A stretch of DNA of 64,000 bases from Candidatus Moraniibacteriota bacterium (GTDB taxonomy: Bacteria; Patescibacteriota; Minisyncoccia; Moranbacterales; UBA1568): positions 189,190-253,189 of the forward strand of contig JACPGV010000002.1 of the NCBI GenBank assembly GCA_016182385.1. The letters run 5' to 3'. This document shows, piece by piece, positions 4,145 to 24,965 of this stretch; position 1 is the stretch's first letter, and every line of letters begins with the position of its first letter. Position numbers and translations under genes: made by a program. The notes under the pieces are model-generated. The model saw nothing but the letters and a program-made list of their open reading frames with translations, searched no databases and was not told where the DNA came from.

Positions 4145-4200
4145 TATAATCCATTATAACGTAAAACCTCCCTTTGCGTTGCAAGGGGAGGCTGAAGAAG

Positions 4201-4635
4201 CTAGATGGATCGAGGGAGTGACTTCTCCGACATTGGTCGGTCGAATTTCACAGGCGGACATTTTCCTTTCCGGAGGGAGATATTATCAACCTGTAATTGA
4301 TGTTCGAGGATGATACCGCCCCGGAATCCCAAAACGTATCCACAAACGAGACTGCGGACTTGTTCGAACTTTTCGTTCATTTTCGATCCGCATGACATTT
4401 TGTCATTATTTATAAGGACGTGAACGTCCCTCGATCCGGCACTTGCGTGATAACGAACTTTCATGTTCAGCTTATTTTCTCCTCTTCGGAGAAAGTTCTG
4501 AATTCTTTCGATCAGATTTGACCGCTCCCTTTCCGTGAGCGGTTTGTTTGTTCTGACGCTGAAGACAATCACGTCTTCAGTTTGGTCATGCACTGCCGAC
4601 ATCTCTTCGGCATAGAGTGACGGTATGAACGTCAT
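4201..4635 (-). CDS. Hypothetical protein (144 aa).
   Basis: ORF with AAAGGAGA SD 7 nt upstream of ATG. No recognisable motif. Confidence 0.45.
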   Translation of the reverse strand: MTFIPSLYAEEMSAVHDQTEDVIVFSVRTNKPLTERERSNLIERIQNFLRRGENKLNMKVRYHASAGSRDVHVLINNDKMSCGSKMNEKFEQVRSLVCGYVLGFRGGIILEHQLQVDNISLRKGKCPPVKFDRPMSEKSLPRSI

Positions 4636-4809
4636 TCTTTTTTCTCCTTTGTCTGTTAAAAAAACACCCTTAAAAACAACAGGATGATGGTAAAAACCAC
4701 AAGAAAACTATAAAGGAGGCCACTTCTTTCGTCAAGGGCACGTGCTTCTTTCACAAATTTTTTTTGTCGGATATAATGAAAAGAAGTTTGGAGCTGTTGT
4801 GATAAAAAT

Positions 4810-5655
4810 ATGGAAGAAGTGTCTTCATTTATTTGTTTTTCAGGAAAAGAATTTGTGCCTTTTCACACGCTTTCTCTCCACCCGTATGATATCGGATTGC
4901 TTCGGGGATACACGGTGTTTGATGTGATGCCGACGGAGCATGGCCGGCCTTTTCTTTGGGAGCGACATTATGAGAGACTGGTTCGTTCGGCGGAATCGTT
5001 GGGATTGTCTCTCCCTGTTGATGCCGAAGCGTATCATCATATTCTCGCCGAGCTCATCGCTCGAAATCATCCGAAAAAGATTTCTTTGCGAACAGTGTTG
5101 TCGGGAGGATTGAGTTTTGATACGTTTACTCCTGTATCCGGGGAGGAGAGTTTTTTTGTTTTTGCTGAACCAGCACATGTATATGCGGATGAAGTATATA
5201 CTCATGGCGTGAAGGTGATAACGCTTGAATATGAGCGACCATTGCCTCAAGTAAAGCTTGCCAATCATGTAATGGCGATTCAGGACCTGCCAAGGCGGCG
5301 TGAGGCAAAAGCATTTGAAGTGGTGTATGTGAATAAAGGCGAGGTGTCGGAGGCATCGCAGAGTAATATTTTTGTCATGCGAAATGGGACTCTTGTAACG
5401 ACGTGGGACAATGTGTTGTGGGGGATTACGCAGGGGTTGGTGCTTGAGCTTGCGGAGGCGCTTGGAGTGATAACAGAAAAACGAGCAATAACGATTGAAG
5501 AATTGTTATCAGCGGACGAGATTTTTATTACCGGCTCAAGCAAGCGGATCATTCCGGTCGTACAAGTAGATGAGACTATAATCGGAGAGGGTACTCCTGG
5601 ACCAGTGACGCGGCGGTTGATGAACGTTTTTGATGAATTCGTGAAGAAACATTGA
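4810..5655 (+). CDS. Class IV PLP-dependent aminotransferase (branched-chain/D-amino-acid aminotransferase or aminodeoxychorismate lyase family).
   Basis: 281 aa. N-terminal pattern F.P......G.LRGYTVFDV. Length and overall pattern typical of the IlvE/Dat/PabC fold. Confidence 0.65.
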   Translation: MEEVSSFICFSGKEFVPFHTLSLHPYDIGLLRGYTVFDVMPTEHGRPFLWERHYERLVRSAESLGLSLPVDAEAYHHILAELIARNHPKKISLRTVLSGGLSFDTFTPVSGEESFFVFAEPAHVYADEVYTHGVKVITLEYERPLPQVKLANHVMAIQDLPRRREAKAFEVVYVNKGEVSEASQSNIFVMRNGTLVTTWDNVLWGITQGLVLELAEALGVITEKRAITIEELLSADEIFITGSSKRIIPVVQVDETIIGEGTPGPVTRRLMNVFDEFVKKH

Positions 5656-5927
5656 AAGTAAAATAAAACCCCTCGTTCGAAGTGTTCCTCGAACGGGGGA
5701 AAGCGATTGAGTCTCTTCCGACGGAATGAACTTCAGCAGCGTCCGGCGCTAACATTCCGCAAATCTTTCCCAGAGAAATCTTTTGATGCTGGAAAGACGA
5801 GAGACCTAGCCTTTTGGCTTACCCCTATAGAGGAGAAGAGAGGGGAAGGCGGTTCGCGGGGACCGTCTTTTGATGCGGCGCCGGGAGTAAGGCAGTTGTA
5901 TCAAAAAACAAGAGTGACGTCAATGTG

Positions 5928-5993
5928 ACCTGACGCATACCAAATAGTTGGCATGCTCCGAGAAGAAAAGAGGGTGCGCTCGGCAGGAATCTC
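5928..5993 (-). repeat. About 65-bp partial duplicate of the tRNA-Arg(CCG) 3' end (last ~19 nt) plus its ~45-bp downstream flank.
   Basis: 5928-5993 is nearly identical to 6084-6148, which contains the true tRNA 3' end. The shared sequence includes GATTCCTGCCGAGCGCACC. Confidence 0.7.
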
Positions 5994-6128
5994 CCTCGAC
6001 TAAACTTTTGTCGTCACAAAAGTTTGTCTGGGCACCGTCTCGCGGTTTCGTATGCTTGCGAAACAACGCTCCGACGTCCGATTCCTGACGCATACCAAGC
6101 AGTTGGTATACTCCGAAAAGAAAAGAGG

Positions 6129-6201
6129 GTGCGCTCGGCAGGAATCGGACCTGCGGCCTTCTGGACCGGAACCAGACGCTCTATCCACTGAGCTACAAGC
6201 G
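6129..6201 (-). tRNA. tRNA-Arg (anticodon CCG).
   Basis: Manual cloverleaf fold. Acceptor GCGCTTG/CGAGCGC, D-arm GCTCAGTGGATAGAGC, anticodon stem TCTGG/CCAGA with loop TTCCGGT, T-arm GCAGG-TCCGATT-CCTGC. No encoded CCA. Confidence 0.8.
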
Positions 6202-6273
6202 CGTTTATTGTTTGAGTGAAAAAACAACGCAATCAAATCATAACGGAAAATACAAGCCATCGCAATTTTTCTT

Positions 6274-6323
6274 GAGAAAAAAAACGCCCCGCGAAATTCG
6301 ATGAGACGAATTGATTCGCGGGG
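6274..6323 (-). terminator. Rho-independent terminator downstream of the Nudix gene.
   Basis: On the minus strand: CCCCGCGAA...TTCGCGGGG hairpin followed by an 8-T run. Confidence 0.55.
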
Positions 6324-6343
6324 CATTAAGTGTGGCTAGTTTT

Positions 6344-6919
6344 TTAGCCGCCGGGGTGTATCCCCGCAAAGGACTTGGAGAGGGCATCGTTGGCGACATC
6401 AAGAGCCATGCGATGCAGGCCGACGAGGAGTTTTTCTTTTGTTTCACCTCGTGGCGATAGTTGAGAACCAAGAATGGTTTCAGCTTCTTCCGGAGTTGGT
6501 GTACCGCCGTTTTTGACTCCGGTCACGACCACGACGAAATGCTTTTCCGTCGATTTGTCGGGGGAGTTGAAAAACGGGCCAAAGACACGGCAGTTGCCTT
6601 CTTCTCCGACGCAACCCGTTTCCTCGCGAAGTTCGCGAAGAGCCGCTGCCTGAGGTGTTTCGTCTTTCTTCTTTCCGCCAGCCGGTAAACAGAGGAGTAC
6701 CTGTTCCACGGCCTGCTTGTACTCGCGGATGAGAACGACTTGGTCATCCTCGGTCACCGGAACCACGAGAACAAACTCACCTCGTTTCCAGATGACTCGA
6801 TCGTCTTCGCGATTGTCGACGCGAACTCGCCAATGTTCGAGCCTGAAAAATCCTTCCATTCCCGAACAGGGCGCAGCGAACGCTACGGGCGTTTTGCCCA
6901 AGATTCCGACCTCCATCAT
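6344..6919 (-). CDS. Nudix hydrolase (ADP-ribose pyrophosphatase-like).
   Basis: Nudix box G(x5)E(x7)REUxEExGU present as PAGGKKKDETPQAAALRELREETG. AAGGAGGA SD upstream. Confidence 0.8.
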   Translation of the reverse strand: MMEVGILGKTPVAFAAPCSGMEGFFRLEHWRVRVDNREDDRVIWKRGEFVLVVPVTEDDQVVLIREYKQAVEQVLLCLPAGGKKKDETPQAAALRELREETGCVGEEGNCRVFGPFFNSPDKSTEKHFVVVVTGVKNGGTPTPEEAETILGSQLSPRGETKEKLLVGLHRMALDVANDALSKSFAGIHPGG

Positions 6920-6960
6920 TTCCTCCTTTTAAAGAGCATCAAGCGGAATGCTTGACTGTG

Positions 6961-6989
6961 TATTGTATCATAATTTAATGTTTAAGTCA
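6961..6989 (-). promoter_or_regulatory. Sigma70-like promoter for the Nudix gene: TTGACT, 17 nt, TACAAT.
   Basis: Reverse complement of 6961-6989 reads TTGACTtaaacattaaattatgaTACAAT. Located 40-70 nt upstream of the ATG at 6919. Confidence 0.45.
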
Positions 6990-7057
6990 AGCCTAAAAAA
7001 TTGACAAAAAAAGAAGGGTCGCAAGATTTCTCTCACAACCCTTATGAACAACTCTTA

Positions 7058-7366
7058 CTAGTCAGTGTAGACGCGATTTATGCTGCGGGTTCGGCCGCAG
7101 CAGAGGCAAAGAGCGAGGCAGTCATGTGTGATGTTATCTTCCTGTCTGCCACATTTCTTGCACCGTTTTGTTTGTACTTCTTTGTATCGCGCCATCGGTG
7201 TACCGCAACAGCGAGTAGACCAGTAGGTCTTTTTGCCGAAGACTCCTGGATTTGGCTCGCGCCGCTCGTTGCCGGTGTTTTCCCACTCCGGCCCGTGGTT
7301 CAGGCACATGCCGTGGCGACACTGACTGTGTGTGCACTTCTGGCCTGCAAGATTGCTATGGTCCAT
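7058..7366 (-). CDS. Small (102 aa) Cys/His-rich protein, putative metal-binding. Function unknown.
   Basis: 11 Cys, including a CC pair and CxxC (CKKCGRQ). Strong SD AAAGGAGA 6 nt upstream. Preferred over the overlapping plus-strand ORF 7001..7495. Confidence 0.5.
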   Translation of the reverse strand: MDHSNLAGQKCTHSQCRHGMCLNHGPEWENTGNERREPNPGVFGKKTYWSTRCCGTPMARYKEVQTKRCKKCGRQEDNITHDCLALCLCCGRTRSINRVYTD

Positions 7367-7588
7367 AGCAGTTCTCCTTTCTGGCTACCTGTTTTCTTAG
7401 GTACCAACTACATATATACACAAAATCGCAGAAAGGTCAATAGTTTTGCGGTGAAAGTAAAAAAATCAGCTCGTTCTTGCTTATTGAAGAAGTAAATTTT
7501 TTTAATGGGGTTTGAAGTTAAAATCTATTTGACCCGGCTGCTCGGTACAGGCAGATACCGGTTTTGCAGATGTTGAAGTGCTGAATTG

Positions 7589-7661
7589 TGCGCTCGGCAG
7601 GAATCGAACCTACGACCCTCTGGACCGCAACCAGATGCTCTATCCACTGAGCTACGAGCGC
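7589..7661 (-). tRNA. tRNA-Arg (anticodon GCG), paralog of the CCG copy.
   Basis: Manual fold. Acceptor GCGCTCG/CGAGCGC, same D-arm as the CCG copy, anticodon loop TTGCGGT, T-arm GTAGG-TTCGATT-CCTGC. Confidence 0.75.
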
Positions 7662-7705
7662 AAAATAAAAAATGTTTTCTAATGTGGATTACGAAGAAAA
7701 CATCT

Positions 7706-8212
7706 TTAAATATGCAGTAATTTTTCCAAAGTGTCAATGAGCCCGGGACTATGCTCTTCTTCCGGTATAAATTGCGAGAGGACATCGCGTAATTCGTTGT
7801 TATCAATAGTGGGAACAGGGATATGCGCGTGGGAAAAAAGTTTTCCTTCAGTATGAAGACTGAGAATATTTTGGAATGGCGGTTCGGTATAAATAAAGAA
7901 TGATTGCACGGATTCGAAAGAGTAGAGCTCATTGCCGGCGACGACGCCTTTTGGGGTAACAGAAAAACGTATGATTCGTGGTTCTCGATACAAAGAAAGA
8001 TAGCCGATAATACCGATGAGAATAAAAGTAATGGCCATTAAGGGGCTATTTGTGTAGAGTGCCCAGACAACAATAAGAACGAGGAGTACGGTGACGATGA
8101 CGCGTGATCGCGGGCCGAGCTCAAGGGGCTCGTGTTCTGGGGCCTCCCATTGAAGTAAAATAGTGTTGGGGGAAAGAGGGGAGGTGCTTTGTTGTTCAAA
8201 AGAATCTTGCAT
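7706..8212 (-). CDS. Hypothetical membrane protein with two TM helices, possibly a bacterial PH-like domain.
   Basis: 168 aa. Hydrophobic segments VIVTVLLVLIVVWALY and AITFILIGIIGYLSLY followed by a soluble domain. Confidence 0.45.
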   Translation of the reverse strand: MQDSFEQQSTSPLSPNTILLQWEAPEHEPLELGPRSRVIVTVLLVLIVVWALYTNSPLMAITFILIGIIGYLSLYREPRIIRFSVTPKGVVAGNELYSFESVQSFFIYTEPPFQNILSLHTEGKLFSHAHIPVPTIDNNELRDVLSQFIPEEEHSPGLIDTLEKLLHI

Positions 8213-8333
8213 AAAGAGTTGATGTTTTTATCCTTGTTCACTATAGCACATTTTTTCTTTTGGTGATTTGATTGGATGGAAAAATCTTGCTAGAGTTGTT
8301 GGAGGGGAATTTGTTTTGTTTGTCAAAAAATAG

Positions 8334-8423
8334 GGAGGAGTGGCCGAGTGGTTGAAGGCAACAGTCTTGAAAACTGTCGTACCCGAAAGGGTATCGTGAG
8401 TTCGAATCTCACCTCCTCCGCCA
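8334..8423 (+). tRNA. tRNA-Ser (anticodon TGA), type II with long variable arm and encoded CCA.
   Basis: GGAGGAG acceptor, GCC/GGC D-stem, anticodon loop CTTGAAA, variable arm CGTACCCGAAAGGGTATC, T-arm GTGAG-TTCGAAT-CTCAC, CTCCTCC-G-CCA. Confidence 0.85.
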
Positions 8424-8496
8424 AGTTTTACATTCAGCGAAATTGAAAGATGTTGCCTCGGCGCAAAGCGCCTCGGCATGGTATTTTTCCGCAATT

Positions 8497-8660
8497 TTAA
8501 AGGCATTTTTGAAATCCAAAAACAAAGTGCGGTCGGCAATGCGGAAGTTCGAACCAATCTTTTTGAGAAAATCCCGAAAGGATTCGGGAATTTTTGGCGG
8601 GAACGCGTTTGTGTCGGCGCGAAGCTCGGTGAGGGAATGGTGTTTTAACCACAGTGTCTT
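8497..8660 (+). repeat. Dispersed repeat family R1, copy 1. It contains imperfect palindromes and T-arm-like GTTCGAAC motifs, and its 3' end carries the 33-bp islet direct repeat.
   Basis: 8524-8620 aligns with the reverse complement of 15158-15290. Core GGATTCGGGAATTtTTGGCGGGAAcGCgTTTGTGTCGGCGC is about 90% identical. ORFs 8409..8672(-) and 8443..8700(+) lie within the repeat. Confidence 0.6.
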
Positions 8661-8735
8661 AACCACAGACAATGGACAGAACGCAATTTTTAGTGTATAA
8701 TTTATTAGATTTTCAACTGTTAAAATCTAATAAAA

Positions 8736-9347
8736 ATGTCATTTGAAGGTTATAAAAAAGATTCCAGGGACATACATTTGAATCCTAAAGAAGGCAAAGA
8801 ACAGGCCGGGACTCTGGAATCATTGTTGGAAAAGTACAAGGACCAAAGAGTATTGGTTCTTGCGCCACCGAGTGTTGGAAAAAGTACCATCTTGCAACAT
8901 ATCAAAGATGGCGTTGACTTAGATGTAGTATTTGATGATATGCCAGAAGAGTTTAAAAGACACGTTTTACATCATGAGTGGCCATTCATGTTTGTTGATG
9001 GTGATAGGAAGGCCATAAAATACACTGAAAAGGAATTTGACCCAAATAATATTGAGCACCAAGATTATTTAAGAGAGACGACTGAATTGCTGACGGATTA
9101 TGTTCAAAGCAAGATGAATATCGAAGCGGGACATCCAGGCTTTGGAAGTACTCTTGTAGATTCTGATGTGGTGATATATTTAAAAATTTCTGAAGAGGAG
9201 CTTGAAAAAAGGATTGAGTCTCGTAATAAGAATACTCACAGACTCGTACAGATTGAAAGAGTTAAGGCGATAAAGAAAAATTTAGAAGTAGATTTAGTTA
9301 GGTTTAAATCTGAAGGTGGAGTAGTGGAAGAGATAACTATTGATTAA
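8736..9347 (+). CDS. P-loop NTPase / putative nucleotide or polynucleotide kinase (203 aa).
   Basis: Walker A-like LAPPSVGKST. AT-rich gene inside the putative islet. Immediately followed by a HAD phosphatase gene. Confidence 0.55.
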   Translation: MSFEGYKKDSRDIHLNPKEGKEQAGTLESLLEKYKDQRVLVLAPPSVGKSTILQHIKDGVDLDVVFDDMPEEFKRHVLHHEWPFMFVDGDRKAIKYTEKEFDPNNIEHQDYLRETTELLTDYVQSKMNIEAGHPGFGSTLVDSDVVIYLKISEEELEKRIESRNKNTHRLVQIERVKAIKKNLEVDLVRFKSEGGVVEEITID

Positions 9348-9909
9348 CCATATAACTGAGAAAAATATGAAAATGAAGAAAAAAATAGTTTTCTTAGACG
9401 GAGATGGAACGCTTTGGTATCCAAGTGCTACAAAGCGAACACAAAAACCTCACTGGATTTATCATGACCCCGAAACTAAAGATAACTATCTTGAACATTT
9501 AGAATTAACCCCAAAGACTAAGGAAACTCTAGAATATTTGAATAAGCAAGGTTTACTCCTTGTAGTTCTTTCAGCGAATCCCTATGCAGAAGATATTGCT
9601 ATTAAAGAAATCAAAGAAAGACTAGATCATTTTCAGTTGATTAGTCTTTTCTATACGTATAGATCTTCAGAGGGCAGCGATCCAAATGGTAAAGCATCAA
9701 TTATTCTGGAAATATTATCATCTTTAGGACTCGAGAAGCAGGACGCGCTGATGGTCGGAGATAGTTATTTTTATGATTACCTCGCAGCTAAAGATATTGG
9801 CGTGGATGCTCTCTTTGTAGAGAATAGTGTTTCAAAAATGCCAGATGAAATCCCTCAAGATTTACAGTCAATTAAAGAGATTCACGAATTAGTTGATATA
9901 CTTACCTGA
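9340..9909 (+). CDS. HAD-superfamily phosphatase (DxDGT class, PNK 3'-phosphatase-like).
   Basis: Motif I FLDGDGTLW, motif IV MVGDSYFYDY, intervening motif II/III-like S/K. 189 aa. Confidence 0.7.
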   Translation: MINHITEKNMKMKKKIVFLDGDGTLWYPSATKRTQKPHWIYHDPETKDNYLEHLELTPKTKETLEYLNKQGLLLVVLSANPYAEDIAIKEIKERLDHFQLISLFYTYRSSEGSDPNGKASIILEILSSLGLEKQDALMVGDSYFYDYLAAKDIGVDALFVENSVSKMPDEIPQDLQSIKEIHELVDILT

Positions 9910-9918
9910 TTTCTTCTT

Positions 9919-12900
9919 ATGGATGTGGATGAGAAATCTGTAAGAACAAAAATCTCGAAGTTCAATCAAGAAAGCAACGTGAGCGAATTACTCAGTTTAC
10001 TGAGTGTCACTGATTCTGACTTGGAGAAAATAATATCCTTTATCAATAAATTTATTGATAAAGGATATTTGAAATCGTTTACATTTCTTCCTCTTAAAGT
10101 TACCGATGAATATTTAGTATTTATTAATTCCTCAAATGAGGTTGAGGTGATTGATACGGATACTGTAAGCTTGAGAAAGGCGCTGAATCATATTAAGGCA
10201 TACGATAATAGCAATTTTCAATCTGAAACTGCTAGTTTAGTTTTGCGAAGCGTCCTTCTTGCCGTATCAAAATCAGAGCTCAAGTCTTATGATGTATTTA
10301 CCAGATTTAATACGGAGGTCTCGGATAAGAATACACTGAGACAACTATTGAAGGATGAAAATAATTGGATCGCTGAAAGAAGAGAAATTCAGAAAAATCT
10401 TACAGATTATTTTTATACAAGTGTAGAATCTCTATCACGAAAGATTGCTCATTCAAAACGGATAGAGAAAGGTCTCTACTGTGTTAGGGGACCTATAGCC
10501 TCAGGAAAGTCCTCATTTATTAAGAGCTTGTTAGATCAAAATATAAAGGACATTGAAGGTTTTGATGGTGTACTAAATACTGACGCTGTAAAAAGAAGGT
10601 TTGTATTAAACGCTTCAAATTACACAGGACAGATGCTTTCTGGTTATGTATTTCATGAGGAAGCATCCATTATCGGTGAAAAACTACTTGAAAAAGTTAA
10701 AGAGGCTAATTTTATTTACGTCCTCGATAGGAGAATGCAATCGGTCGATGACCTTGATGAACTTCTGCTTGATGCAGAACGAAGAAACTTGCCAGTTAAT
10801 ATTTTTGATCTAAAAGTTGATTTTATAACATCCGCATTGAGAGTTCTAGAGAGAACAGGTGTGTACCCAAGTGATCCTACACCTGATTTTTTATCACTAT
10901 ACAAAAGTTATAAAAATATAGAGGATTGCAGATTGATTTTCTTAGAGAAATCTTTAGCTTCAAAATTTGTAAAAAATTATTCCACAGTATCCGTTAATAC
11001 TAATGGTGACCCAGTAATCCTCAATCTTAAAAAGAACTATATAGTTAATAAGCAGAACTTAGTTCATGAATCAGAAGCTCGGTATATGTCGAGTATTGAA
11101 AGTTTGAAAAACCTCATTCTTTCAAATGATAAGACGCTTCAAATTACTCTAGACGAGCATTCGCGAAAGGGGCACATTCCTCGGTTATCAAGAAATGAGT
11201 ATCAAGAGGGTCTATTGCGAAATATTAAATGTACAAGTAGGACATTTGATGGAGAGTTAGATGTTTCGGCATCTAAAGATAAGCATAAGATTCTCAACAC
11301 ATCTATTTCAAAGAATGATCTGATAAAGATCACGAAAAATAATATAACAAAAGCTTTTGATTTTGTATATGATAATAAAAACATACCTATATTATCGCCA
11401 CAAGTGCTTAAAGACTTTATTGATCAAATTGCAAGAATTGTAAATCAAGAGATTATAAATGATGAAAAGCTAATAGTAAGAAGCGGAAGTAATTCCCATA
11501 AGTATTTTTATGTAGATACAAAATACGTAGAAAAGTTTTATAAATCATTTGTAAGTCAGTTGTACTATAAGCTTAGTAATCCAGCAGTTAACCCCATAGA
11601 TTTAGCGGCGTGGATTGAATGGAATATAGATTTTTGTGGACATATTTTTAGTGATGGTTGCGGGAGAATTTCAAAAATTTTGAGTACGTGGCTACTGACG
11701 AGATATAATGTTACTTTGCCAAATTATGAAAATGGACAAGATGGATTTGCAACTATTCGAGAATCATACAGAAAGAGATTCGCTATTAAATCGATTATAA
11801 ATCTTCAAATTCCCACTAATACAAAAAGCTTTTACGCTTTCGCAACCTACTATAAGAGATTGTTTGAGCCTAAGAAGACTTATAAGATTCTTGCTTCAGG
11901 CGGGTTAATTTATAATTCAGCGGGTCAGTTCTTAATACTTCAGACTAGTAAGGGTAAGGACTGCGGGAAGTGGGTTGTTCCTGGAGGTAAGCTGGATATC
12001 AATGAAGCTCCAATGGAAGCGTTTGTTCGGGAGGTCTTTGAGGAAACTGGACTTGAGATCAACAATATTCGTTTATTAGGAGTACGTGATTACACAGCAA
12101 AAAGTGGAAACCATTATCATTTTTATGACTATACCTCTTCTGTAATTGATGAAAAAAGAATAAAGATTAACGAGGAGTCCCTCGCTTTTAAGTGGATTAC
12201 GAAAGATCAGATATTAAACTTTACTTTTACGGATTCAATCACAAATTTTATTCATAAATATTTTATTTTTGAATATCTAGATATTTATCAAAAAGTAGTT
12301 AAGATTCCAGATCATAACTTCGACACACCTCATTTAATCGACCATACGATGACAACTTCGCTAGAGAATTATATCAAAAATAAACTACCGATAGATTTGA
12401 TTGATAGTAATCTAAGGATGATAGATAGTTTTGAAATACATGGTATATATCCAGATCTCAATATTTTGAATGAACTGAATCTAGACTTTACTATCACCGA
12501 GGTGCTTCATTCGAGTAAGTTAAAAAAAGACAATAGCAATAGCTTGAGACCGATGTTTTTATTAGGTGAGAGAAATTCAAAGAAGATTTTGATCTGTTGT
12601 GTAACTCCAGGGAGAGACTTACTCATACACTATGCTTCTATGATTAAGTATCATTTAAGAAATTTTCAGATTTCGATAAATGTCTATGCTTATCCTTTGG
12701 CTGAAAAAGATATCGATAAATGGACTGGTCTAGACGAAAAAATGATTATCAAGAATGATATTGTTATTCTTGGCTACAGCACTTTTTTTAAAGATCACTT
12801 TGAAAAAGATTCTGATTTTTCGGTATTAAGTACGTACCAAAACAAGTTTTATTCAGCTACTAGATTTATTTCAAAAAACGGAAAGGTAATAAATTGTCTG

Positions 12901-13455
12901 GAGGCAAACTATGGTCATTGGGGTGATATTAGTGATTTTCTAGCGCAGAAAGTATGTCAGTTGAAAGCACAGGAGATTTTGCATGTAGGAAAAGTGGGTA
13001 CCTTAAAATCTGTAAGTGAAGTATATAAAAGAATATACATACCAAAGTCATTTGTTATAGGTAGAAGAAATGAAATTATGAGCTTAGGCTTAAAGTTAAG
13101 TAATTCTATGGAGTATATAAAAGAGCATTCTTCTTTAGCTCATATTTCTGTAACTACAACAATGGAAGAAACCTTTACTCAGCGTGAACATTTTTCTAAG
13201 CAAAAAGTTCATACGATAGATATCGAATCATCAAAAATTGCTCGTGCAGTTGCTCTATATAATATTACTAACAAGACTAAGATAAAATTTGGAGCAATAC
13301 ATTTCTCTTCAGATTATTTGAAAAAATTAGAGGAGTCAGAGCAGAATGTAGGTATAGATTTATCAACCAATAGAGAGGATTTGAAATATAGAAAGCAAAA
13401 TATACTTAATGAAATCTTTTATATTATTAAGAGGCATATCATTGATAATGGGTAG
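9919..13455 (+). CDS. Multidomain 1178-aa protein: N-terminal unknown domain, zeta-toxin/PNK-like P-loop kinase, Fic/Doc-like domain, Nudix hydrolase domain, and a C-terminal ~380-aa domain possibly nucleosidase-like.
   Basis: Walker A GPIASGKSS (~aa 181). Fic-like HIFSDGCGRISK (~aa 573), close to the Fic core consensus HxFx(D/E)GNGRxxR. Nudix box GGKLDINEAPMEAFVREVFEETGLE (~aa 690). C-terminal ...ILHVGKVGTL... weakly PNP/MTAN-like. About 33% GC. Confidence 0.7.
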   Translation: MDVDEKSVRTKISKFNQESNVSELLSLLSVTDSDLEKIISFINKFIDKGYLKSFTFLPLKVTDEYLVFINSSNEVEVIDTDTVSLRKALNHIKAYDNSNFQSETASLVLRSVLLAVSKSELKSYDVFTRFNTEVSDKNTLRQLLKDENNWIAERREIQKNLTDYFYTSVESLSRKIAHSKRIEKGLYCVRGPIASGKSSFIKSLLDQNIKDIEGFDGVLNTDAVKRRFVLNASNYTGQMLSGYVFHEEASIIGEKLLEKVKEANFIYVLDRRMQSVDDLDELLLDAERRNLPVNIFDLKVDFITSALRVLERTGVYPSDPTPDFLSLYKSYKNIEDCRLIFLEKSLASKFVKNYSTVSVNTNGDPVILNLKKNYIVNKQNLVHESEARYMSSIESLKNLILSNDKTLQITLDEHSRKGHIPRLSRNEYQEGLLRNIKCTSRTFDGELDVSASKDKHKILNTSISKNDLIKITKNNITKAFDFVYDNKNIPILSPQVLKDFIDQIARIVNQEIINDEKLIVRSGSNSHKYFYVDTKYVEKFYKSFVSQLYYKLSNPAVNPIDLAAWIEWNIDFCGHIFSDGCGRISKILSTWLLTRYNVTLPNYENGQDGFATIRESYRKRFAIKSIINLQIPTNTKSFYAFATYYKRLFEPKKTYKILASGGLIYNSAGQFLILQTSKGKDCGKWVVPGGKLDINEAPMEAFVREVFEETGLEINNIRLLGVRDYTAKSGNHYHFYDYTSSVIDEKRIKINEESLAFKWITKDQILNFTFTDSITNFIHKYFIFEYLDIYQKVVKIPDHNFDTPHLIDHTMTTSLENYIKNKLPIDLIDSNLRMIDSFEIHGIYPDLNILNELNLDFTITEVLHSSKLKKDNSNSLRPMFLLGERNSKKILICCVTPGRDLLIHYASMIKYHLRNFQISINVYAYPLAEKDIDKWTGLDEKMIIKNDIVILGYSTFFKDHFEKDSDFSVLSTYQNKFYSATRFISKNGKVINCLEANYGHWGDISDFLAQKVCQLKAQEILHVGKVGTLKSVSEVYKRIYIPKSFVIGRRNEIMSLGLKLSNSMEYIKEHSSLAHISVTTTMEETFTQREHFSKQKVHTIDIESSKIARAVALYNITNKTKIKFGAIHFSSDYLKKLEESEQNVGIDLSTNREDLKYRKQNILNEIFYIIKRHIIDNG

Positions 13456-13477: not shown

Positions 13478-13500
13478 AGATTTTTGAGACACTAGCGTGT
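13478..13500 (+). terminator. Possible hairpin terminator after the 1178-aa ORF.
   Basis: AGACAC-tagc-GTGTCT stem-loop followed by TATTTCCTT. A second hairpin ATGAGACA...TGTCTCAT lies at 13515-13542. Confidence 0.3.
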
Positions 13501-13675
13501 CTTATTTCCTTAATATGAGACATAGCCTGTATTGTGTCTCATTTGTCTCAAAAGCCTGACCCGGACACCTCAATTTGCTATACTCCAAGTACCTCCAAGA
13601 AACCCCTCAACAGCCCTATACTTCAAAGTTCTAGACCGATGTAGCCCGCAATTTTTCGAAAAGGGTTTCAGAACC

Positions 13676-13720
13676 AAAAATATGGTCGGCGTGAAGCTCG
13701 GTGAGGGAATGTGGTTTGAG
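13676..13720 (+). repeat. Partial R1 repeat copy carrying the second 33-bp direct repeat, the putative right boundary of the islet.
   Basis: 13685-13717 GTCGGCGtGAAGCTCGGTGAGGGAATGtgGTTT versus 8613-8646 GTCGGCGcGAAGCTCGGTGAGGGAATGgtGTTTT. Confidence 0.55.
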
Positions 13721-15026: not shown

Positions 15027-15117
15027 GGAAAGGTGGCCGAGCTGGCTGAAGGCACCACACTGCTAACGTGGCAGGGGATAAAACCCCTCGAGGGTTCGAA
15101 TCCCTCCCTTTCCGCCA
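15027..15117 (+). tRNA. tRNA-Ser (anticodon GCT), type II with encoded CCA.
   Basis: GGAAAGG acceptor, GCC/GGC D-stem, anticodon stem CCACA/CGTGG with loop CTGCTAA, long variable arm AGGGGATAAAACCCCTC, T-arm GAGGG-TTCGAAT-CCCTC, CCTTTCC-G-CCA. Confidence 0.8.
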
Positions 15118-15300
15118 AAATTGAAAATCGGAATCGGAAGCCGAAATGGGGTCGGCGCGAAGCGCCGACACAAAAGCATTCCCGCCAAGAATTCCCGAAT
15201 CCAAAAGGTTTTTCCACGCTCCGCGTGGCTCAAAAAAGACGGTTCGATCCTTAATTTGAAAGTTCGAACCGACTTTTTTGAACAAATGAAGTTTTGCTTC
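15112..15300 (-). repeat. tRNA-Ser(GCT) 3'-flank repeat (att-like, 15112-15149) followed by an inverted copy of repeat family R1 (15158-15290).
   Basis: 15112-15149 recurs at 19472-19509 (33/38 identical). 15158-15290 is the reverse complement of 8524-8620. Internal imperfect palindrome AAAAAGTCGGTTCGAAC...GATCGAACCGTCTTTTTT. Confidence 0.6.
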
Positions 15301-15587: not shown

Positions 15588-17426
15588 ATGTTTGAAAAAC
15601 ACCCCCTCCACATCAAAAACCCAGAACTGCAGAAATCTGCCGATGTTCAGCATGCCGTTGTTCGTGACCAGCGCCACACCGGCGAGAAAATTCCAAATGA
15701 TCCTAAAGATCGTATTGAGGCATATACTGACCGATTGGAAAATATCTTTCTCAACCCTGATAGCCGAGTACGAGAGCGCAATATTGACCTTCTTCGTCCC
15801 AAGATTTACGACAGCCTCATCATCAAGCGAGGGAATTTTCCCGATTCCTACTTTGAACTCCAAAAAAGAGTGGCCAGAGAACAGGGTCACGGTGACATTG
15901 AAATTTCTCAAGAGATGCGAGAGCAGATGATTGATACGGCTATCGCTGATCAAAGGCACTCTCTTGATGCTTGGATTGACTACCTGTCATCCGAAGATGC
16001 TGTCTATCCAGCCTGGTTTAAGTACTACGCGTGGAATCAAATTACCAAGCTTTCCCAGTTTGATAAAGAGCGCGGCGAATTCAAGAAACGCACCGAAAGC
16101 ACGGTCGCTCCTTTTCCAGATATCTACCGCGAACCACTAGCGCAAATGGCCGACCTGTACGAGCGAGTCAAGCAAGATAATAAGGATCCAGAAGCTAGAG
16201 CTGAATTTGATAAAAAATTCCCTAATCTCTACGCTGAACTCATTGTTAAATCCTTAGAGGCCGGAGTGGGGGGTGGGGAAACCATAGAGGGGGCCTGGGT
16301 AAAGTTTGAACAAGGGGAGGAAGGCGCCGCGGAGAAACTTTTTCAGTCGCTTGATGGCCGAGGGACGGGCTGGTGTACCGCTGGGTATTCAACCGCCCAA
16401 ACCCAAATTGAATCCGGAGATTTCTATGTCTATTACACGAATGATAAAGACGGAAACCCAATACAACCAAGACTCGCCATTCGCATGAATGGTGATACTC
16501 AAATCGGAGAAGTAAGAGGAGTGCTCCCGCAACAAAATGTAGAGCCTTTGATGCAAGAAGTATTAGAGGAAAAACTCCAAGCTTTTGGGAAAGAGGCTGA
16601 TGCGTATCATAAGAGGAGTAGCGATATGAAAATGCTGACCGTTCTGGAAAACAAAAAAAAGCAGGGAATACCTTTTGCTAAAGAAGATCTCACTTTCCTA
16701 TACGAAATCAATTCCACCATTGAAGGCTTTGGCTATCAGGAAGATCCACGCATCGCTGAATTACGGGCTGATCGCAATACCGAAAGAGACATGTTAGTAA
16801 TCTTTGATTGTACCCAGGCAGATATTGCCAGAACCCCAAGTGAAATTCGGCCTACAACCAAAGCCTATGTGGGTCAATTAGAGCCAGGCATCTTCCAAAA
16901 ACTCCCAGCTACTCTAGAACACGTCTATACTGCTTTCCCAGAAGGAAAAGTACGAAGGATAGAATCCAAAGTGGGAGGCAAATCTGCTGGTACTCTTCAA
17001 GAAGAATTGGAAGCTGCTCAAATCAATATTGGGGGCTATGCTGAGAGTATGCTCAAAAACAAAAAGGAATTTATTGCTACTCCAGAATTAGAAGAGATGA
17101 CCCTGATTCGTCTTACGGTAGCTGACCTTGGTTTTAAGTCCTCTGCTACTACTGATCAAATTTACAAACGAGCTGAAGAATTAGGACTTGAACTCTGTCC
17201 AAGCGATGTCGGTCCCACGCTCCGTTTACAATACCAAAATCAACCTCTTGGAGAATGGCTGTATATAGGAATGAAACAAATTGCTGACTCTGACGGCAAT
17301 CCCGGCGTTTTCATGCTGGCGCGCGACGGTGGCGGTTTGTGGTTGGACAGCAGTTGGGCGAGGCCTAGCAGCGGGTGGAATCCGGACGGCGGGTTCGTGT
17401 TCCGTCTCCGCAAATCTGAATCTTAG
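15588..17426 (+). CDS. DGR target (variable) protein, 612 aa. C-terminal ~45 aa is encoded by the VR (C-type-lectin/FGE-like ligand-binding fold inferred). N-terminal ~560 aa of unknown function.
   Basis: 3' end 17283-17410 is an adenine-mismatched copy of the TR. C-terminal motif ...GWNPDGGFVFRLR is typical of DGR variable proteins. Confidence 0.8.
   Translation: MFEKHPLHIKNPELQKSADVQHAVVRDQRHTGEKIPNDPKDRIEAYTDRLENIFLNPDSRVRERNIDLLRPKIYDSLIIKRGNFPDSYFELQKRVAREQGHGDIEISQEMREQMIDTAIADQRHSLDAWIDYLSSEDAVYPAWFKYYAWNQITKLSQFDKERGEFKKRTESTVAPFPDIYREPLAQMADLYERVKQDNKDPEARAEFDKKFPNLYAELIVKSLEAGVGGGETIEGAWVKFEQGEEGAAEKLFQSLDGRGTGWCTAGYSTAQTQIESGDFYVYYTNDKDGNPIQPRLAIRMNGDTQIGEVRGVLPQQNVEPLMQEVLEEKLQAFGKEADAYHKRSSDMKMLTVLENKKKQGIPFAKEDLTFLYEINSTIEGFGYQEDPRIAELRADRNTERDMLVIFDCTQADIARTPSEIRPTTKAYVGQLEPGIFQKLPATLEHVYTAFPEGKVRRIESKVGGKSAGTLQEELEAAQINIGGYAESMLKNKKEFIATPELEEMTLIRLTVADLGFKSSATTDQIYKRAEELGLELCPSDVGPTLRLQYQNQPLGEWLYIGMKQIADSDGNPGVFMLARDGGGLWLDSSWARPSSGWNPDGGFVFRLRKSES
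17283..17410 (+). repeat. DGR variable repeat (VR).
   Basis: 128 bp, about 83% identical to the TR. All ~22 mismatches fall at TR adenines. Shared 3' GC-rich IMH-like end CGTGTTCCGTCTCCG. Confidence 0.85.
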
Positions 17427-21572: not shown

Positions 21573-22325
21573 TTATCTCGCGATGACGATGCCGAAGACT
21601 TTGGTGGCGCCGGCACGCTTCAGAATCGTGGCGCATTCCGTGAGAGTAGCTCCAGTGGTAGCGACGTCGTCGATAAGCCAGATATATTTCCCCAAAAGCT
21701 CGTTGCGTCGGGAGTCGTTTATTATGAAGGCGTTTTTAAGATTTTTGAGCCGTTCTTCACGGGAATCGGTTTTTATTTGTGGCTTGGTGTAGTTGATACG
21801 AAGAAGAGCATCGGAAAGAACGGGGAGATGAAGATGTGGAGCAACATGCTGCGCGAGAGCATTTGCAAGAAGCTCGGACTGATTGAATCCACGAAAACGA
21901 AGGCGACGCTTGTGAAGTGGTACGGGAATGACATAATCGGGAAGAGGAAGATCTGTTTTGATCATTTGTTGCGCGAGCCAGAAACCGAGCGGCTCGGCGA
22001 GGAGCGAGATGAAGCGGTATTTATAGGTATGGATAAGTAGCGAGACAAATGGAGAACGATAGAGAGCTGGAGCAAACAATCCATCAAGCGCGGGGGCAAT
22101 ATCACAACAGGCAAAACAGAGCTCGCCATGAGGCGTGGTTGTTTTGTGGCAATGGGGGCAACGTTGTTTGGTGTGAAGAGGGAGTTTTTCGGCGCAGAGA
22201 GAACAAAGGTAGGTATCGGGAGTGCCGCATCCGAAACAAGAGAGAGGAAAAAGAGTATCAAGGAAAAAGGTACTGAGTGTTTCAAGAAATGGAAATCGAC
22301 GAAAAAGTATTTTTGTCAGAGACAC
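21573..22325 (-). CDS. comF: ComF-family competence protein (double zinc ribbon plus phosphoribosyltransferase domain).
   Basis: N-terminal CxxC...CxxC pairs. C-terminal PRTase motif IWLIDDVATTGATL. Confidence 0.75.
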   Translation of the reverse strand: MSLTKILFRRFPFLETLSTFFLDTLFPLSCFGCGTPDTYLCSLCAEKLPLHTKQRCPHCHKTTTPHGELCFACCDIAPALDGLFAPALYRSPFVSLLIHTYKYRFISLLAEPLGFWLAQQMIKTDLPLPDYVIPVPLHKRRLRFRGFNQSELLANALAQHVAPHLHLPVLSDALLRINYTKPQIKTDSREERLKNLKNAFIINDSRRNELLGKYIWLIDDVATTGATLTECATILKRAGATKVFGIVIAR

Positions 22326-24796: not shown

Positions 24797-24965
24797 AGAA
24801 AGAAAAAGTATACTAATAGAGTACCATATATCTTATTTTTTCTTTGGTGGTATGTCAACCCCGAACAATGTTTTTTAAGAGTGTTTTTTTAGGTTATATT
24901 TCTTTGTTTTTTTTCTGTGATGTGATAAAATATCATTGAAATGAGACAAAGACAAAAGTGAACAT

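Follow-up and report, generated by a model that had tools for sequence, protein, structure and literature searches.

A conserved bacterial operon encodes a four-domain protein combining an AvrRxo1-like kinase-Fic tandem with Nudix and nucleoside-phosphorylase-fold domains

Introduction

In Xanthomonas, the AvrRxo1 (XopAJ) kinase serves as a type III effector and is also a toxin that Arc1 neutralises, and AvrRxo1-Fic fusions were described in Ca. Saccharimonas and Parcubacteria by Triplett et al. in 2016, so that the kinase and Fic half of the protein presented here had previously been noted in CPR genomes (PMC4938570). The products of AvrRxo1 are 3'-NADP and 3'-NAADP, ATP and ADP are phosphorylated slowly, and the D193N variant is catalytically impaired (PMC5087710). 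Nucleotide ribose-3'-phosphorylating toxins opposed by a hydrolase are also found in toxSAS/SAH pairs and among (p)ppApp toxins. Depletion of ATP by effectors of the nucleoside-phosphorylase-I (NP-I) fold is an established means of defence (bioRxiv 10.1101/2023.01.24.525353). In aminonucleoside pathways (puromycin, A201A, cystocin, and ADG), a 3'-modified nucleotide is handled by a Nudix enzyme and a phosphatase.

The locus described here is an operon of three genes, A, B, and C, in a 64,000-nucleotide stretch of DNA (the window), and its features are listed in Table 1. As in AvrRxo1:Arc1, the operon is low in GC, its flanks are variable, and its kinase belongs to the same family with conserved Walker A and catalytic Asp; as in the CPR homologues, a Fic-like domain follows the kinase. 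Unlike AvrRxo1:Arc1, the cassette has no Arc1-like antitoxin gene, gene C adds Nudix and NP-I-like domains, and a HAD phosphatase is the obligate partner. Unlike toxSAS, it encodes a P-loop kinase and a Fic domain, not a RelA/SpoT synthetase, and HAD replaces the small alarmone hydrolase (SAH).

Table 1. Positions of the operon genes, gene C domains, and flanking elements in the window
Feature	Position	Strand	Remarks
Direct repeat, left copy, 33 nt, operon-bracketing	8613..8645	+	91% identical to 13685-13717
Sigma-70-like promoter candidate	8673..8701	+	TGGACA-17-TATAAT; 11/12 consensus positions; best site of the region; upstream of gene A
Gene A, 203-aa P-loop protein, NMP/deoxynucleoside-kinase-like	8736..9347	+	Walker A APPSVGKST
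Gene B, capless HAD-superfamily phosphatase	9340..9909	+	motif I FLDGDGT
Gene C, four-domain protein, 1178 aa	9919..13455	+	ATG start; stop codon within coordinates
Gene C, N-terminal extension, aa 1-124	9919..10290	+	least conserved part; matches no known family
Gene C, AvrRxo1/zeta-toxin-type P-loop kinase, aa 125-400	10291..11118	+	NCBIfam, PDB, invariant motifs
Gene C, divergent Fic (Fido) domain, aa 405-650	11131..11868	+	active-site motif H575-x-F-x-D-G-C-G-R-x-x-K586
Gene C, Nudix hydrolase domain, aa 655-785	11881..12273	+	complete box G690-x5-E696-x7-R704-E705-x2-E708-E709-x-G711
Gene C, nucleoside-phosphorylase-I (PNP/UDP/MTAN) fold domain, aa 786-1178	12274..13452	+	extra N-terminal subdomain; large unannotated family
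Terminator-like hairpin and T-rich tail	13485..13504	+	30 nt past gene C stop; consensus scan only
Direct repeat, right copy, 33 nt	13685..13717	+	pairs with 8613..8645

Gene C and its homologues

The ORF of gene C contains no internal stops. Databases contain the identical protein as P0001 (1176 aa, on a 318-kb contig), and about 28 further homologue clusters cover its full length at 45 to 76% identity, so the possibility that gene C is a fusion artefact of several genes was rejected and the intact ORF of the initial annotation stands. Gene C is confirmed as a real, conserved bacterial protein with four enzyme-type domains. The family is rare, with about 29 clusters in 5.8 billion sequences. 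In an alignment of 21 sequences, all motifs listed for gene C were invariant, and the domains were all constrained (mean identity 0.54 to 0.70), with the lowest conservation in the N-terminal extension (mean pairwise identity 0.38). The split version in locus L019 encodes kinase-Fic (670 aa), Nudix (136 aa), and NP-I-like (399 aa) proteins in the same order, which confirms the domain boundaries; on the basis of this operon, the four parts of gene C work as one unit.

The four domains first called from the sequence (Walker-A kinase, Fic, Nudix, and nucleosidase-like) were all recovered in profile or structure searches, and the motifs named with them, GPIASGKSS, the Fic-type motif, and the Nudix box, were all present. 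The fusion had been regarded as possibly undescribed; no paper uniting a Fic domain, Nudix, and zeta toxin was found in the literature library searched, and database sources name the protein solely as a NUDIX protein.

Domains of gene C

The kinase domain aligned with positions 3 to 282 of the 324 in NCBIfam model NF041405 (XopAJ/AvrRxo1) at 92.3 bits (E=3.2e-26), below the family cut-off of 300 bits, and the simple kinase-Fic relative P0043 reached 222 bits against this model. PDB entry 4z8q (AvrRxo1-ORF1) was matched at E=8e-8, with NTD of gene C aligned with NPD of 4z8q. The score against Pfam Zeta_toxin (PF06414) was 21.5 bits (E=1.7e-4), slightly under the gathering score of 22.3 bits, and a precomputed PF06414 match exists for family member P0023. 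Both the Walker A P-loop (aa 191-199, G191 to S199) and the equivalent of AvrRxo1 D193 in the sequence alignment, the putative catalytic D222 in motif LNTDAVK, are present, and G191, K197, and D222 were invariant in the 21 sequences. The zeta-toxin/PNK-like call was correct as to a Walker-A kinase, but by sequence the enzyme is specifically of the AvrRxo1-like (NAD 3'-kinase) type, and neither a PNK nor a zeta toxin of the general kind. Because it scores 92 bits against a cut-off of 300, its acceptor substrate may differ from that of AvrRxo1. An unassigned N-terminal part does exist, although it is shorter than the ~180 aa without motif noted before, as the AvrRxo1 model aligns from residue 125. 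Residues ~25-124 form a conserved extension common to other AvrRxo1-Fic tandem proteins, in which profile matches begin from about position 25 and which the Nterm HMM also matches.

The second domain has the Fido fold, as expected from its Fic-type call, though its score against Pfam PF02661 was 14.4 bits (E=0.069) with a gathering score of 24 bits, and PF02661 matches were weak in 9 of 12 family members (best E=0.011). The Fic-type motif HIFSDGCGRISK (aa 575-586) reads H575-I-F-S-D-G-C-G-R-I-S-K586 and takes the form HxFxDGCG[K/R]xxK in the wider family. Compared with HxFx[D/E]GNGRxxR of the Fic/Doc (Fido) AMPylators and kinases (FICD, BT_2513/3cuc, VbhT, and Doc), the His, Phe, Asp, and GxG are retained, while Cys stands in for Asn and Lys for the final Arg. 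Gene C further differs from these proteins in the tandem arrangement with a zeta-type kinase, and no inhibitory helix was identified for its Fic domain.

The Nudix domain is canonical, with 65.2 bits against Pfam NUDIX (PF00293; E=7.6e-18, cut-off 21.1) and a best PDB match of E=1.7e-9. The Nudix box GGKLDINEAPMEAFVREVFEETGL (aa 689-712) is complete as Gx5Ex7REUxEExGU from G690 to L712, and its residues were invariant in the 21-sequence alignment.

The C-terminal domain, in which a weak PNP/MTA-nucleosidase resemblance had been seen, has the NP-I alpha/beta fold with no PF01048 (PNP_UDP_1) match at E<=10 in any of 12 members, and hhalign against E. coli MTAN found no match (probability 0.1%). 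As PF01048 is not matched at all, the NP-I-like family falls outside those PNP clades that have been surveyed. Residues D1132, E1103, and D1101 were invariant in 41 sequences and follow the strands carrying MTAN D197 and E174, as judged by secondary-structure order; going by this order and by motif resemblance, they may include the counterparts of the catalytic Asp and ribose-binding Glu of NP-I enzymes. The catalytic motifs were also invariant across the wider NP-I-like family, and an extra N-terminal subdomain of ~100 aa contains an invariant H-T-M motif. The fold is shared with the immune ATP nucleosidases (Cap17 and Detocs DtcC) and with MTAN, PNP, Udp, and AMP nucleosidase, and NP-I-like relatives lie near defence and conflict genes. 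Unlike Cap17, DtcC, and the housekeeping NP-I enzymes, gene C has the extra subdomain, and its fusion partner is a Nudix domain in place of a sensor domain. Membership of the Cap17/DtcC clade was rejected, as there was no PF01048 match, no match to the PADLOC Detocs or Cap17 models, and no sensor domain.

Operon partners and genomic context

Gene C is the last gene of the operon. Gene B precedes it in 15/15 cassette loci and, at 65-83% identity, is conserved better than any other component. Its score above the gathering threshold of Pfam HAD_2 (49.5 bits, E=7e-13, cut-off 23.8) and its motif I of the form DxDx[TV] place it in the HAD superfamily, with further matches to Pfam Hydrolase (E=2.5e-11), NCBIfam HAD-IIIA (E=1e-8, under cut-off), and PDB 4ygq (E=5.5e-8). 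The listed ORF begins at TTG 9340, although the true start is probably ATG 9367 or 9373. Gene A lies upstream of the HAD gene in 13 of the 15 loci (47-80% identity) and is missing from L013 and L019; its matches were weak both to Pfam dNK and AAA_18, each under its own cut-off, and to adenylate kinase and dGK in the PDB.

The GC content of the cassette was below that of its flanks in every locus. These flanks vary and include genes for a TraG/VirD4-like ATPase, resolvase, IS transposase, and relaxase. The cassette was kept at the same chromosomal site in three genomes that share only 40-68% identity in their housekeeping proteins, and gene C was as conserved as ClpB. Defence and TA cassettes are not usually retained vertically in this way, and such retention fits a physiological role equally well as one in toxicity or defence. 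Sources were mostly labelled as CPR (Moranbacteria and Patescibacteria, with Saccharibacteria for the tandem family), and taxon labels are unreliable. No cassette copy was found on viral contigs, and no riboswitch and no sensor or regulatory domain were found for the cassette. In PADLOC-DB v2 the cassette matched no defence system, the only matches being that of the Nudix domain to candidate PDC-S07 and weak ones for A and B; among relatives, only the cNMP-binding part of P0146 gave a match.

Modular ancestry and partner replacement

Gene C is a weld of two older modules that recur separately, the AvrRxo1-kinase and Fic tandem and the Nudix and NP-I-like pair. At loci with sufficient flank, simple kinase-Fic genes had an Arc1-like partner in 11/11 cases and an SAH/Mesh1-type hydrolase in 8/11, and HAD, gene A, and NP-I were found in none of the 68 simple kinase-Fic loci. 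The tandem also forms the C-terminal end of proteins of 1.1-2.6 kaa, once after a Pycsar-type cNMP-binding domain, and it behaves like a toxin module. Neither a family HMM nor a scan for the motif KExFD...(Y/L)ExxYY detected an Arc1-like ORF at 7-16 kb of the window or in any cassette locus, and SAH was present among cassette loci in L019 only. The cassette shows partner replacement, with HAD where the simple systems have SAH and Arc1. On Klebsiella plasmids, and also in Paenibacillus and Streptomyces, the Nudix and NP-I-like pair is accompanied by a DegT aminotransferase, a GFO/IDH/MocA oxidoreductase, and DMT/EamA transporters, and in P0053 the NP-I domain is fused to GFO/IDH/MocA.

Proposed function and alternatives

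The first proposal, a nucleotide-modifying toxin/defence or signalling enzyme, is the leading class of explanation for gene C, and the operon resembles an undescribed enzyme line for the processing of adenine nucleotides. For its substrate, order of steps, and biological role, as for the part of HAD, we infer the following scheme. Gene C would be the catalytic core, composed of a toxin-type module (AvrRxo1-like ribose-3'-kinase and Fic-like domain with HxFxDGCG[K/R]) and a nucleotide-dismantling module (Nudix pyrophosphatase and NP-I-fold nucleosidase or phosphorylase). With ATP, the kinase would phosphorylate NAD+ or a different adenine nucleotide at the 3'-OH of its adenosine ribose, a reaction demonstrated for AvrRxo1, and the Fic-like domain would transfer a second group, phosphoryl or nucleotidyl, to the same class of molecule or to a protein target. 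The Nudix domain would cleave the pyrophosphate bridge or 5'-polyphosphate of the 3'-phosphorylated product, and the NP-I domain would remove the base, with adenine (di)nucleotides consumed irreversibly as the net outcome. The obligate HAD phosphatase, which occupies the position of the Arc1 antitoxin and the SAH (a ribose-3'-(pyro)phosphohydrolase) in simpler systems, would be a counter-enzyme stripping the 3'-phosphate and so limiting or resetting the reaction. Most likely, the system would serve in conflict, by depleting nucleotides or by acting in a toxin-like way from a mobile cassette. This reading of the operon as a toxin-derived line that 3'-phosphorylates and then dismantles adenine (di)nucleotides under a HAD counter-enzyme is tentative, and we give it a probability of roughly one in three. 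A toxin fused 1:1 to enzymes that destroy its own product does not follow addiction-module logic; the arrangement is closer in appearance to a metabolic or biosynthetic route in which intermediates are channelled.

The fusion of consecutive enzymes and their identical order in the split operon suggest a pathway. Such a line could exist for its product and not for depletion, and would make a modified nucleoside or nucleotide that serves as an antimetabolite, a chain terminator, or a signal. The 3'-modification would then come from the kinase and Fic domains; Nudix would trim the 5'-polyphosphate and HAD would take a phosphate off, steps performed by Pur7 and Pur3 in aminonucleoside pathways, and NP-I would swap or release the base. 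The aminotransferase, oxidoreductase, and transporter neighbours of the Nudix and NP-I-like pair and the P0053 fusion agree with this; these enzyme classes match those of Pur10, Pur4, Pur7, and Pur3, the builders of 3'-amino nucleosides (PMC11641026), a resemblance at the level of enzyme class only. Genes for thymidylate-kinase-like, deoxyribosyltransferase-like, and His-phosphatase proteins are added in L004. With a kinase-Fic half of toxin ancestry associated with the Arc1 antitoxin, and with no oxidoreductase (dehydrogenase), aminotransferase, exporter, or self-resistance gene in the window's cassette, such biosynthesis is credible but unlikely. Somewhat less probable is a housekeeping salvage or catabolism hub of a reduced-genome, host-dependent CPR bacterium, in which the enzymes would convert scavenged dinucleotide cofactors and nucleotides to bases and ribose phosphates and re-phosphorylate nucleosides, the toxin-type domains having been domesticated. 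The CPR labels of most carriers, syntenic retention with ClpB-like conservation, a constitutive-looking promoter with no sensor domain or riboswitch found, and the typical salvage enzyme classes of A (NMP/dNK-like) and B (nucleotidase-like) argue for it; the low GC, the unrelated and partly mobile contexts, and the unreliable labels argue against it, and the rarity of the family means that there is no general CPR requirement. We know of no salvage role for an AvrRxo1-type 3'-kinase or a Fic domain.

An effector translocated into a host or prey cell, where all four domains would act together to sabotage both the nucleotide pools and proteins while A and B protect the producer, is improbable. 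Its precedents are AvrRxo1 itself and the frequency of Fic and Nudix domains in effectors (PMC4938570; PMC5675462), and carriers are labelled as episymbiotic CPR. VirD4/TraG-like coupling ATPases adjoin the cassette in L004 and L012, but they are equally explained by a cassette riding conjugative elements, and in most loci secretion genes are not nearby. The giant proteins tipped by the kinase-Fic tandem had no recognised polymorphic-toxin markers, and neither a secretion signal nor a known translocation domain was detected.

Flanking elements

The promoter candidate upstream of gene A is suggestive only, because the total of such sites in the region was not above the shuffled expectation. The operon is bracketed by the two copies of the direct repeat, and a 41-nt inverted copy overlaps the left one, with positions 8580-8620 pairing with 15162-15202.

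Gene C encodes an intact four-domain protein

The open reading frame of gene C, the last gene of the A-B-C operon (here called the cassette), is continuous, and its kinase, Fic-like and Nudix motifs are invariant (table below), so the single 1178-aa protein proposed in the initial annotation stands. A 318-kb contig labelled Candidatus Moranbacteria encodes a recorded protein identical to the gene C product, and full-length homologues with 45-76% identity form a further 28 clusters. All domains are under constraint, with a mean pairwise identity of 0.54 for the kinase, 0.58 for the Fic-like domain, 0.68 for the Nudix domain and 0.70 for the core of the nucleoside phosphorylase-I (NP-I)-like domain; the sole loose part is the first 124 residues (0.38). 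At one locus, L019, the system is split over three genes, whose products of 670 aa (kinase-Fic), 136 aa (Nudix) and 399 aa (NP-I-like) follow the domain order of gene C, an independent confirmation of the domain borders. These split genes, the 28 full-length clusters, the identical protein and the domain constraint together rule out a frameshift, assembly or fusion artefact of several genes, the outcome that would have undone the earlier interpretation.

Features of the cassette in the window and of loci carrying the NP-I-like family (nucleotide positions unless marked aa)
Feature	Position	Location	Description
Gene A	8736-9347	same strand as gene C, upstream	203-aa P-loop protein, weakly NMP/deoxynucleoside kinase-like
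Gene B	9340-9909	same strand as gene C, upstream	capless HAD phosphatase, Pfam HAD_2 E = 7e-13
Gene C	9919-13455	+ strand	ATG start, 1178 codons without interruption
Walker A	aa 191-199	gene C	invariant in 21-sequence alignment
Fic-like motif HIFSDGCGRISK	aa 575-586	gene C	invariant in 21-sequence alignment
Complete Nudix box	aa 689-712	gene C	invariant in 21-sequence alignment
Promoter candidate	8673-8701	upstream of gene A	sigma-70-like, near-consensus
Hairpin	13485-13504	downstream of gene C	T-rich tail
Short repeat element	8580-8645, 13685-13717, 15162-15202	after both tRNA-Ser genes	
Klebsiella IncFIB conjugative plasmid NZ_CP055107.1 (L091)	6013-9499		four-gene operon
Klebsiella IncFIB conjugative plasmid NZ_CP103421.1 (L092)	4989-8499		four-gene operon
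Paenibacillus planticolens (L020)	6093-9416		Nudix (upstream), GFO/IDH/MocA, EamA; GmrSD and AAA_15/DUF3696 close by
Streptomyces sp. NBC_00105 (L021)	7001-9640		GFO/IDH/MocA; EACC1 and TCAD9 close by
Plasmid-like contig (L017)			DegT; Shedu-type gene close by

Domain identities

Against the NCBIfam XopAJ/AvrRxo1 model, the kinase region (aa 125-400) scored 92 bits (E = 3.2e-26), short of the 300-bit cut-off; it also matched the sequence of the AvrRxo1-ORF1 crystal structure 4z8q (E = 8e-8) and came slightly below threshold with Pfam Zeta_toxin. The zeta/PNK-like kinase named in the initial annotation is thus retained as a kinase of the AvrRxo1 type, the zeta-toxin label falling just short. 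The 'NPD' of AvrRxo1 containing the catalytic Asp193, whose D193N variant is impaired (PMC5087710), aligns to an invariant 'NTD' (D222) in gene C. The AvrRxo1 catalytic residues are therefore present in a protein that lies below the family cut-off and has no Arc1 (AvrRxo1 antitoxin) partner.

The Fic-like domain has the Fido fold, a departure from the canonical Fic motif and a score below the Pfam cut-off, and over the Fic regions of all family members Pfam gave sub-threshold matches only; the earlier Fic call holds for the fold. Inspection of the gene C family by eye gave no convincing conserved match to the canonical (S/T)xxxE(G/N) inhibitory helix. A canonical Nudix domain, first noted from its box, spans residues 655-785 (Pfam E = 7.6e-18), and gene B is a HAD phosphatase by family membership.

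For aa 786-1178, no Pfam, NCBIfam or PADLOC match was found in any family member. Its AF2 model (pLDDT 80.6) gave 347 Foldseek matches at E ≤ 1e-3 with probability 1.0, and two methods including Foldseek predict the NP-I fold. The sequence profile of the region returned only spurious asparaginase and Fab matches against the PDB, and hhalign gave no match to E. coli MTAN (MTAN sequence 100% identical to 3o4v). The PNP/MTA-nucleosidase resemblance noticed earlier is accordingly one of fold, outside the Pfam sequence family. D1132 and E1103 are invariant in 41 sequences with a median identity of 31%; because the MTAN comparison was negative, we infer from this invariance and from the place in the strand order that they correspond to the catalytic Asp and the ribose-binding Glu, respectively. 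In PADLOC, PHROGs and NCBIfam nothing was found except the Nudix, HAD and AvrRxo1 matches, and the cassette matched none of the known defence-system models.

Two older modules are joined in gene C

An exhaustive profile search separated three families, the full-length proteins with their split forms, module I and module II, and the gene C protein is two older modules welded together. Module I, the AvrRxo1-like kinase and Fic-like tandem, covers profile positions ~25-650 and was found as 600-900-aa proteins or as the C-terminal end of 1.1-2.6-kaa proteins without other Pfam match. One member reaches 222 bits on the AvrRxo1 model and another has the record name 'zeta toxin family protein [Ca. 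Saccharibacteria]'. The signature HxFxDGCG[K/R]xxK is common to all module I proteins and defines a distinct Fic clade.

In the 68 metagenomic neighbourhoods of module I (L022-L089), the cassette HAD, gene A and the NP-I domain were absent (0/68), which rules out the HAD as a universal kinase-Fic partner. Two other same-strand partners recur, a ~200-aa HD protein of the small alarmone hydrolase (SAH)/Mesh1 type (PDB 6yvc, E = 2.8e-7; 6z3n/6z3o, 3nqw) and a ~115-aa protein bearing the signature of Arc1 (KExF[D/N] in 18/25, [Y/L]ExxYY in 19/25). Among loci flanked by 1.2 kb or more on each side, the Arc1-like partner accompanied 11/11 kinase-Fic tandems, 6/8 kinase-only genes and 1/9 Fic-only genes, and the SAH partner 8/11, 3/8 and 5/9, respectively; the Arc1-like partner goes with the kinase, and SAH is found beside Fic-only genes too. 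The three-gene operon of kinase-Fic, SAH and Arc1-like genes was also seen conserved, e.g., at L029:7395-10705 and L022:7269-10614.

AvrRxo1 homologues with predicted C-terminal Fic/Doc domains, followed by arc1-like ORFs, were reported from Ca. Saccharimonas and Parcubacteria by Triplett et al. 2016, who also demonstrated that AvrRxo1 and Arc1 act as toxin and antitoxin (PMC4938570). Their observations make the kinase-Fic half a noted, uncharacterised toxin-type module. In comparison to these simple systems, the cassette lacks the Arc1 partner entirely, has SAH in L019 only and has an obligate HAD.

Module II, the NP-I-like family, has >100 representatives, among them 'hypothetical proteins' of Streptomyces, Paenibacillus, Actinomadura and Methylobacterium. 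The ~400-aa domain occurs alone or fused to terpenoid-cyclase/TED-like repeats, DUF4062 or a GFO/IDH/MocA oxidoreductase, the last as one protein in P0053. The operon on the two Klebsiella plasmids encodes an NP-I-like 'hypothetical protein', a DMT transporter, NUDIX and a DegT/DnrJ/EryC1 aminotransferase, enzyme classes that recall aminonucleoside core pathways, the likeness being by class. The recurring neighbours show that Nudix and the NP-I-like domain are paired repeatedly and independently of module I. An 'RHS' annotation on Klebsiella oxytoca plasmid AP014952.1, considered as a polymorphic-toxin tip, was too weak, being a 296-aa ORF beside IS elements.

The cassette across loci

Among the 15 cassette-carrying loci, gene B was present in all and is the best-conserved protein (65-83% identity), and gene A was present in 13, its position being taken by an unrelated 160-aa gene in L013 and by a second HAD in L019. 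Cassette GC is below that of the flanks in every locus (33% vs 44% for the remainder of the window), and the flanks differ wholly among most loci. Genes for VirD4/TraG-like ATPase, resolvase, IS1595 transposase, relaxase and Xre-type regulators flank it in several of them, and in L014 ruvA lies on one side and ruvB on the other. In the window it is placed between two tRNA-Ser genes; 33-nt direct repeat copies (91% identical) flank the operon on both sides, and past the second tRNA-Ser there is an inverted copy of 41 nt (93%); the element may be a scar of recombination or else a small intergenic repeat.

Two loci are syntenic with the window (1985-8212 and 22316-26093), L006 sharing RecG (40%) and a tRNA array, and L007 sharing ClpB (66%) and PilM (68%), and gene C is as conserved (67%) as ClpB. 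The distribution of the cassette is therefore partly vertical. The records of L006 and L007 are titled 'Gammaproteobacteria' and 'Bdellovibrionales', whereas the gene C protein of the window is labelled 'Ca. Moranbacteria'; these labels are inconsistent and unreliable, and since synteny contradicts them, we rejected phylum-wide spread as a reading of MAG labels and claim no cross-phylum spread. Neither viral contigs nor the phage genome collection yielded a cassette copy, the sole relative being one Nudix-only match.

Proposed function and alternatives

Nudix enzymes cut nucleoside-diphosphate-X bonds, NP-I enzymes cut N-glycosidic bonds, and SAH enzymes take off ribose-3'-(pyro)phosphates. 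All four predicted catalytic domains of gene C have intact signature residues. AvrRxo1 adds a phosphate to NAD and NAAD at the 3'-OH of the adenosine ribose and does so slowly with ATP and ADP (PMC5087710), and some NP-I enzymes deplete ATP in immunity (bioRxiv 10.1101/2023.01.24.525353). From these analogies, the ribose 3' position of adenine nucleotides appears as the common theme of the cassette enzymes and, reading the fusions as a Rosetta stone, is probably where their activities share one substrate stream. The reading that we favour, at a probability of about 0.35, is that the kinase would produce a 3'-phosphorylated adenine (di)nucleotide, the Fic-like domain would make a further phosphoryl or nucleotidyl transfer, the Nudix domain would split the product at the pyrophosphate and the NP-I domain would remove the base. 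The HAD, in the place of the SAH of simpler systems, would strip the 3'-phosphate and restrain the reaction. The consumption of NAD or ATP-type pools that would follow points to a role in conflict, carried on a mobile cassette.

Against a conflict role, the 1:1 fusion of a toxin with product-removing enzymes resembles a pathway and not an addiction module, and the cassette is stably inherited in one lineage. It is conceivable, and put forward tentatively, that the AvrRxo1-type kinase and the Cys-containing Fic variant make 3'-(pyro)phosphorylated or 3'-nucleotidylated adenine nucleotides (3'-NADP, pppAp(p)-like), which Nudix, NP-I and HAD convert to a defined product or destroy, by a previously unknown enzymatic route. 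Synthesis of a modified nucleotide or nucleoside is a rival that is doubtful at present; in its favour, enzyme classes like those of Pur10/Pur4/Pur7/Pur3 (PMC11641026) are encoded near relatives of the NP-I-like domain. That the cassette is a salvage hub domesticated in reduced genomes is unlikely, and a translocated effector is quite improbable. If phosphorylation and dismantling is the true route, it would be a new means to deplete or transform NAD and ATP; a biosynthetic line would yield a new modified nucleotide; and the previously unknown route would bring new nucleotide-based toxin, immunity or signalling chemistry and first functions for two large families that lack annotation, one being the HxFxDGCGK Fic clade and the other the NP-I-like clade.

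The superfamilies of all gene C domains are known, and the fusion of the kinase-Fic half was noticed in 2016, so the 'possibly undescribed' fusion of the initial annotation applies to the whole and not to that half (PMC4938570). In the literature, we found neither Fic, Nudix and zeta toxin in combination nor an account of the four-domain architecture and its constant HAD partner. The same holds for the exchange in which HAD, Nudix and NP-I stand in for Arc1 and SAH, for SAH as a companion of simple tandems, and for the NP-I-like family itself; Aravind-group papers name PNPase and Nudix effectors in general terms only. One polypeptide joins an NAD 3'-kinase toxin type, Fic, Nudix and a nucleosidase-like domain, always beside a phosphatase (15/15 loci), and this fusion links several uncharacterised families. 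It offers a handle on the HxFxDGCG[K/R] Fic clade, whose members form tandems with AvrRxo1-like kinases and have alarmone-hydrolase and Arc1-like genes as partners. A second handle is on the large NP-I-like family, which, being invisible to Pfam, has been missed in surveys of immune PNP effectors, although clinical Klebsiella plasmids, Streptomyces and Paenibacillus all carry it.

Further observations

An Rfam scan for a riboswitch or known leader of the operon found only the two tRNAs. At the distant cassette locus L004 (11763-14075), the operon extends with thymidylate-kinase-like, weak nucleoside 2-deoxyribosyltransferase-like and His_Phos_1 phosphatase genes and one more gene, which extends the nucleotide-chemistry theme. 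Six giant proteins (P0046, P0051, P0052, P0103, P0130, and P0175; 1.6-2.6 kaa) have a kinase-Fic or Fic-like C-terminal end and 1000-2000 remaining residues without Pfam match. P0146 (L016:7001-9769, 922 aa) combines a cNMP-binding domain, matching the sensor part of Pycsar TIR-effector models, with a zeta-type kinase and a Fic-like domain, and may be a cyclic-nucleotide-triggered version of module I; no cyclase gene is apparent beside its gene in L016.

A perfect 38-bp palindrome (window 10032-10069; halves AATATCCTTTATCAATAAA and TTTATTGATAAAGGATATT) lies within the N-terminal coding part of gene C, scores as a terminator-like hairpin on the minus strand and encodes a peptide that is not conserved among homologues. 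Downstream of the second tRNA-Ser, a 612-aa ORF (15588-17426) had no match in Pfam or PADLOC and a faint NCBIfam RecX match (E = 0.076). Four tRNA genes, Arg-CCG, Arg-GCG, Ser-TGA, and Ser-GCT (window 6128-8423 and 15027-15117), surround the cassette, and tRNA genes also adjoin the cassettes in L001, L006, and L008.
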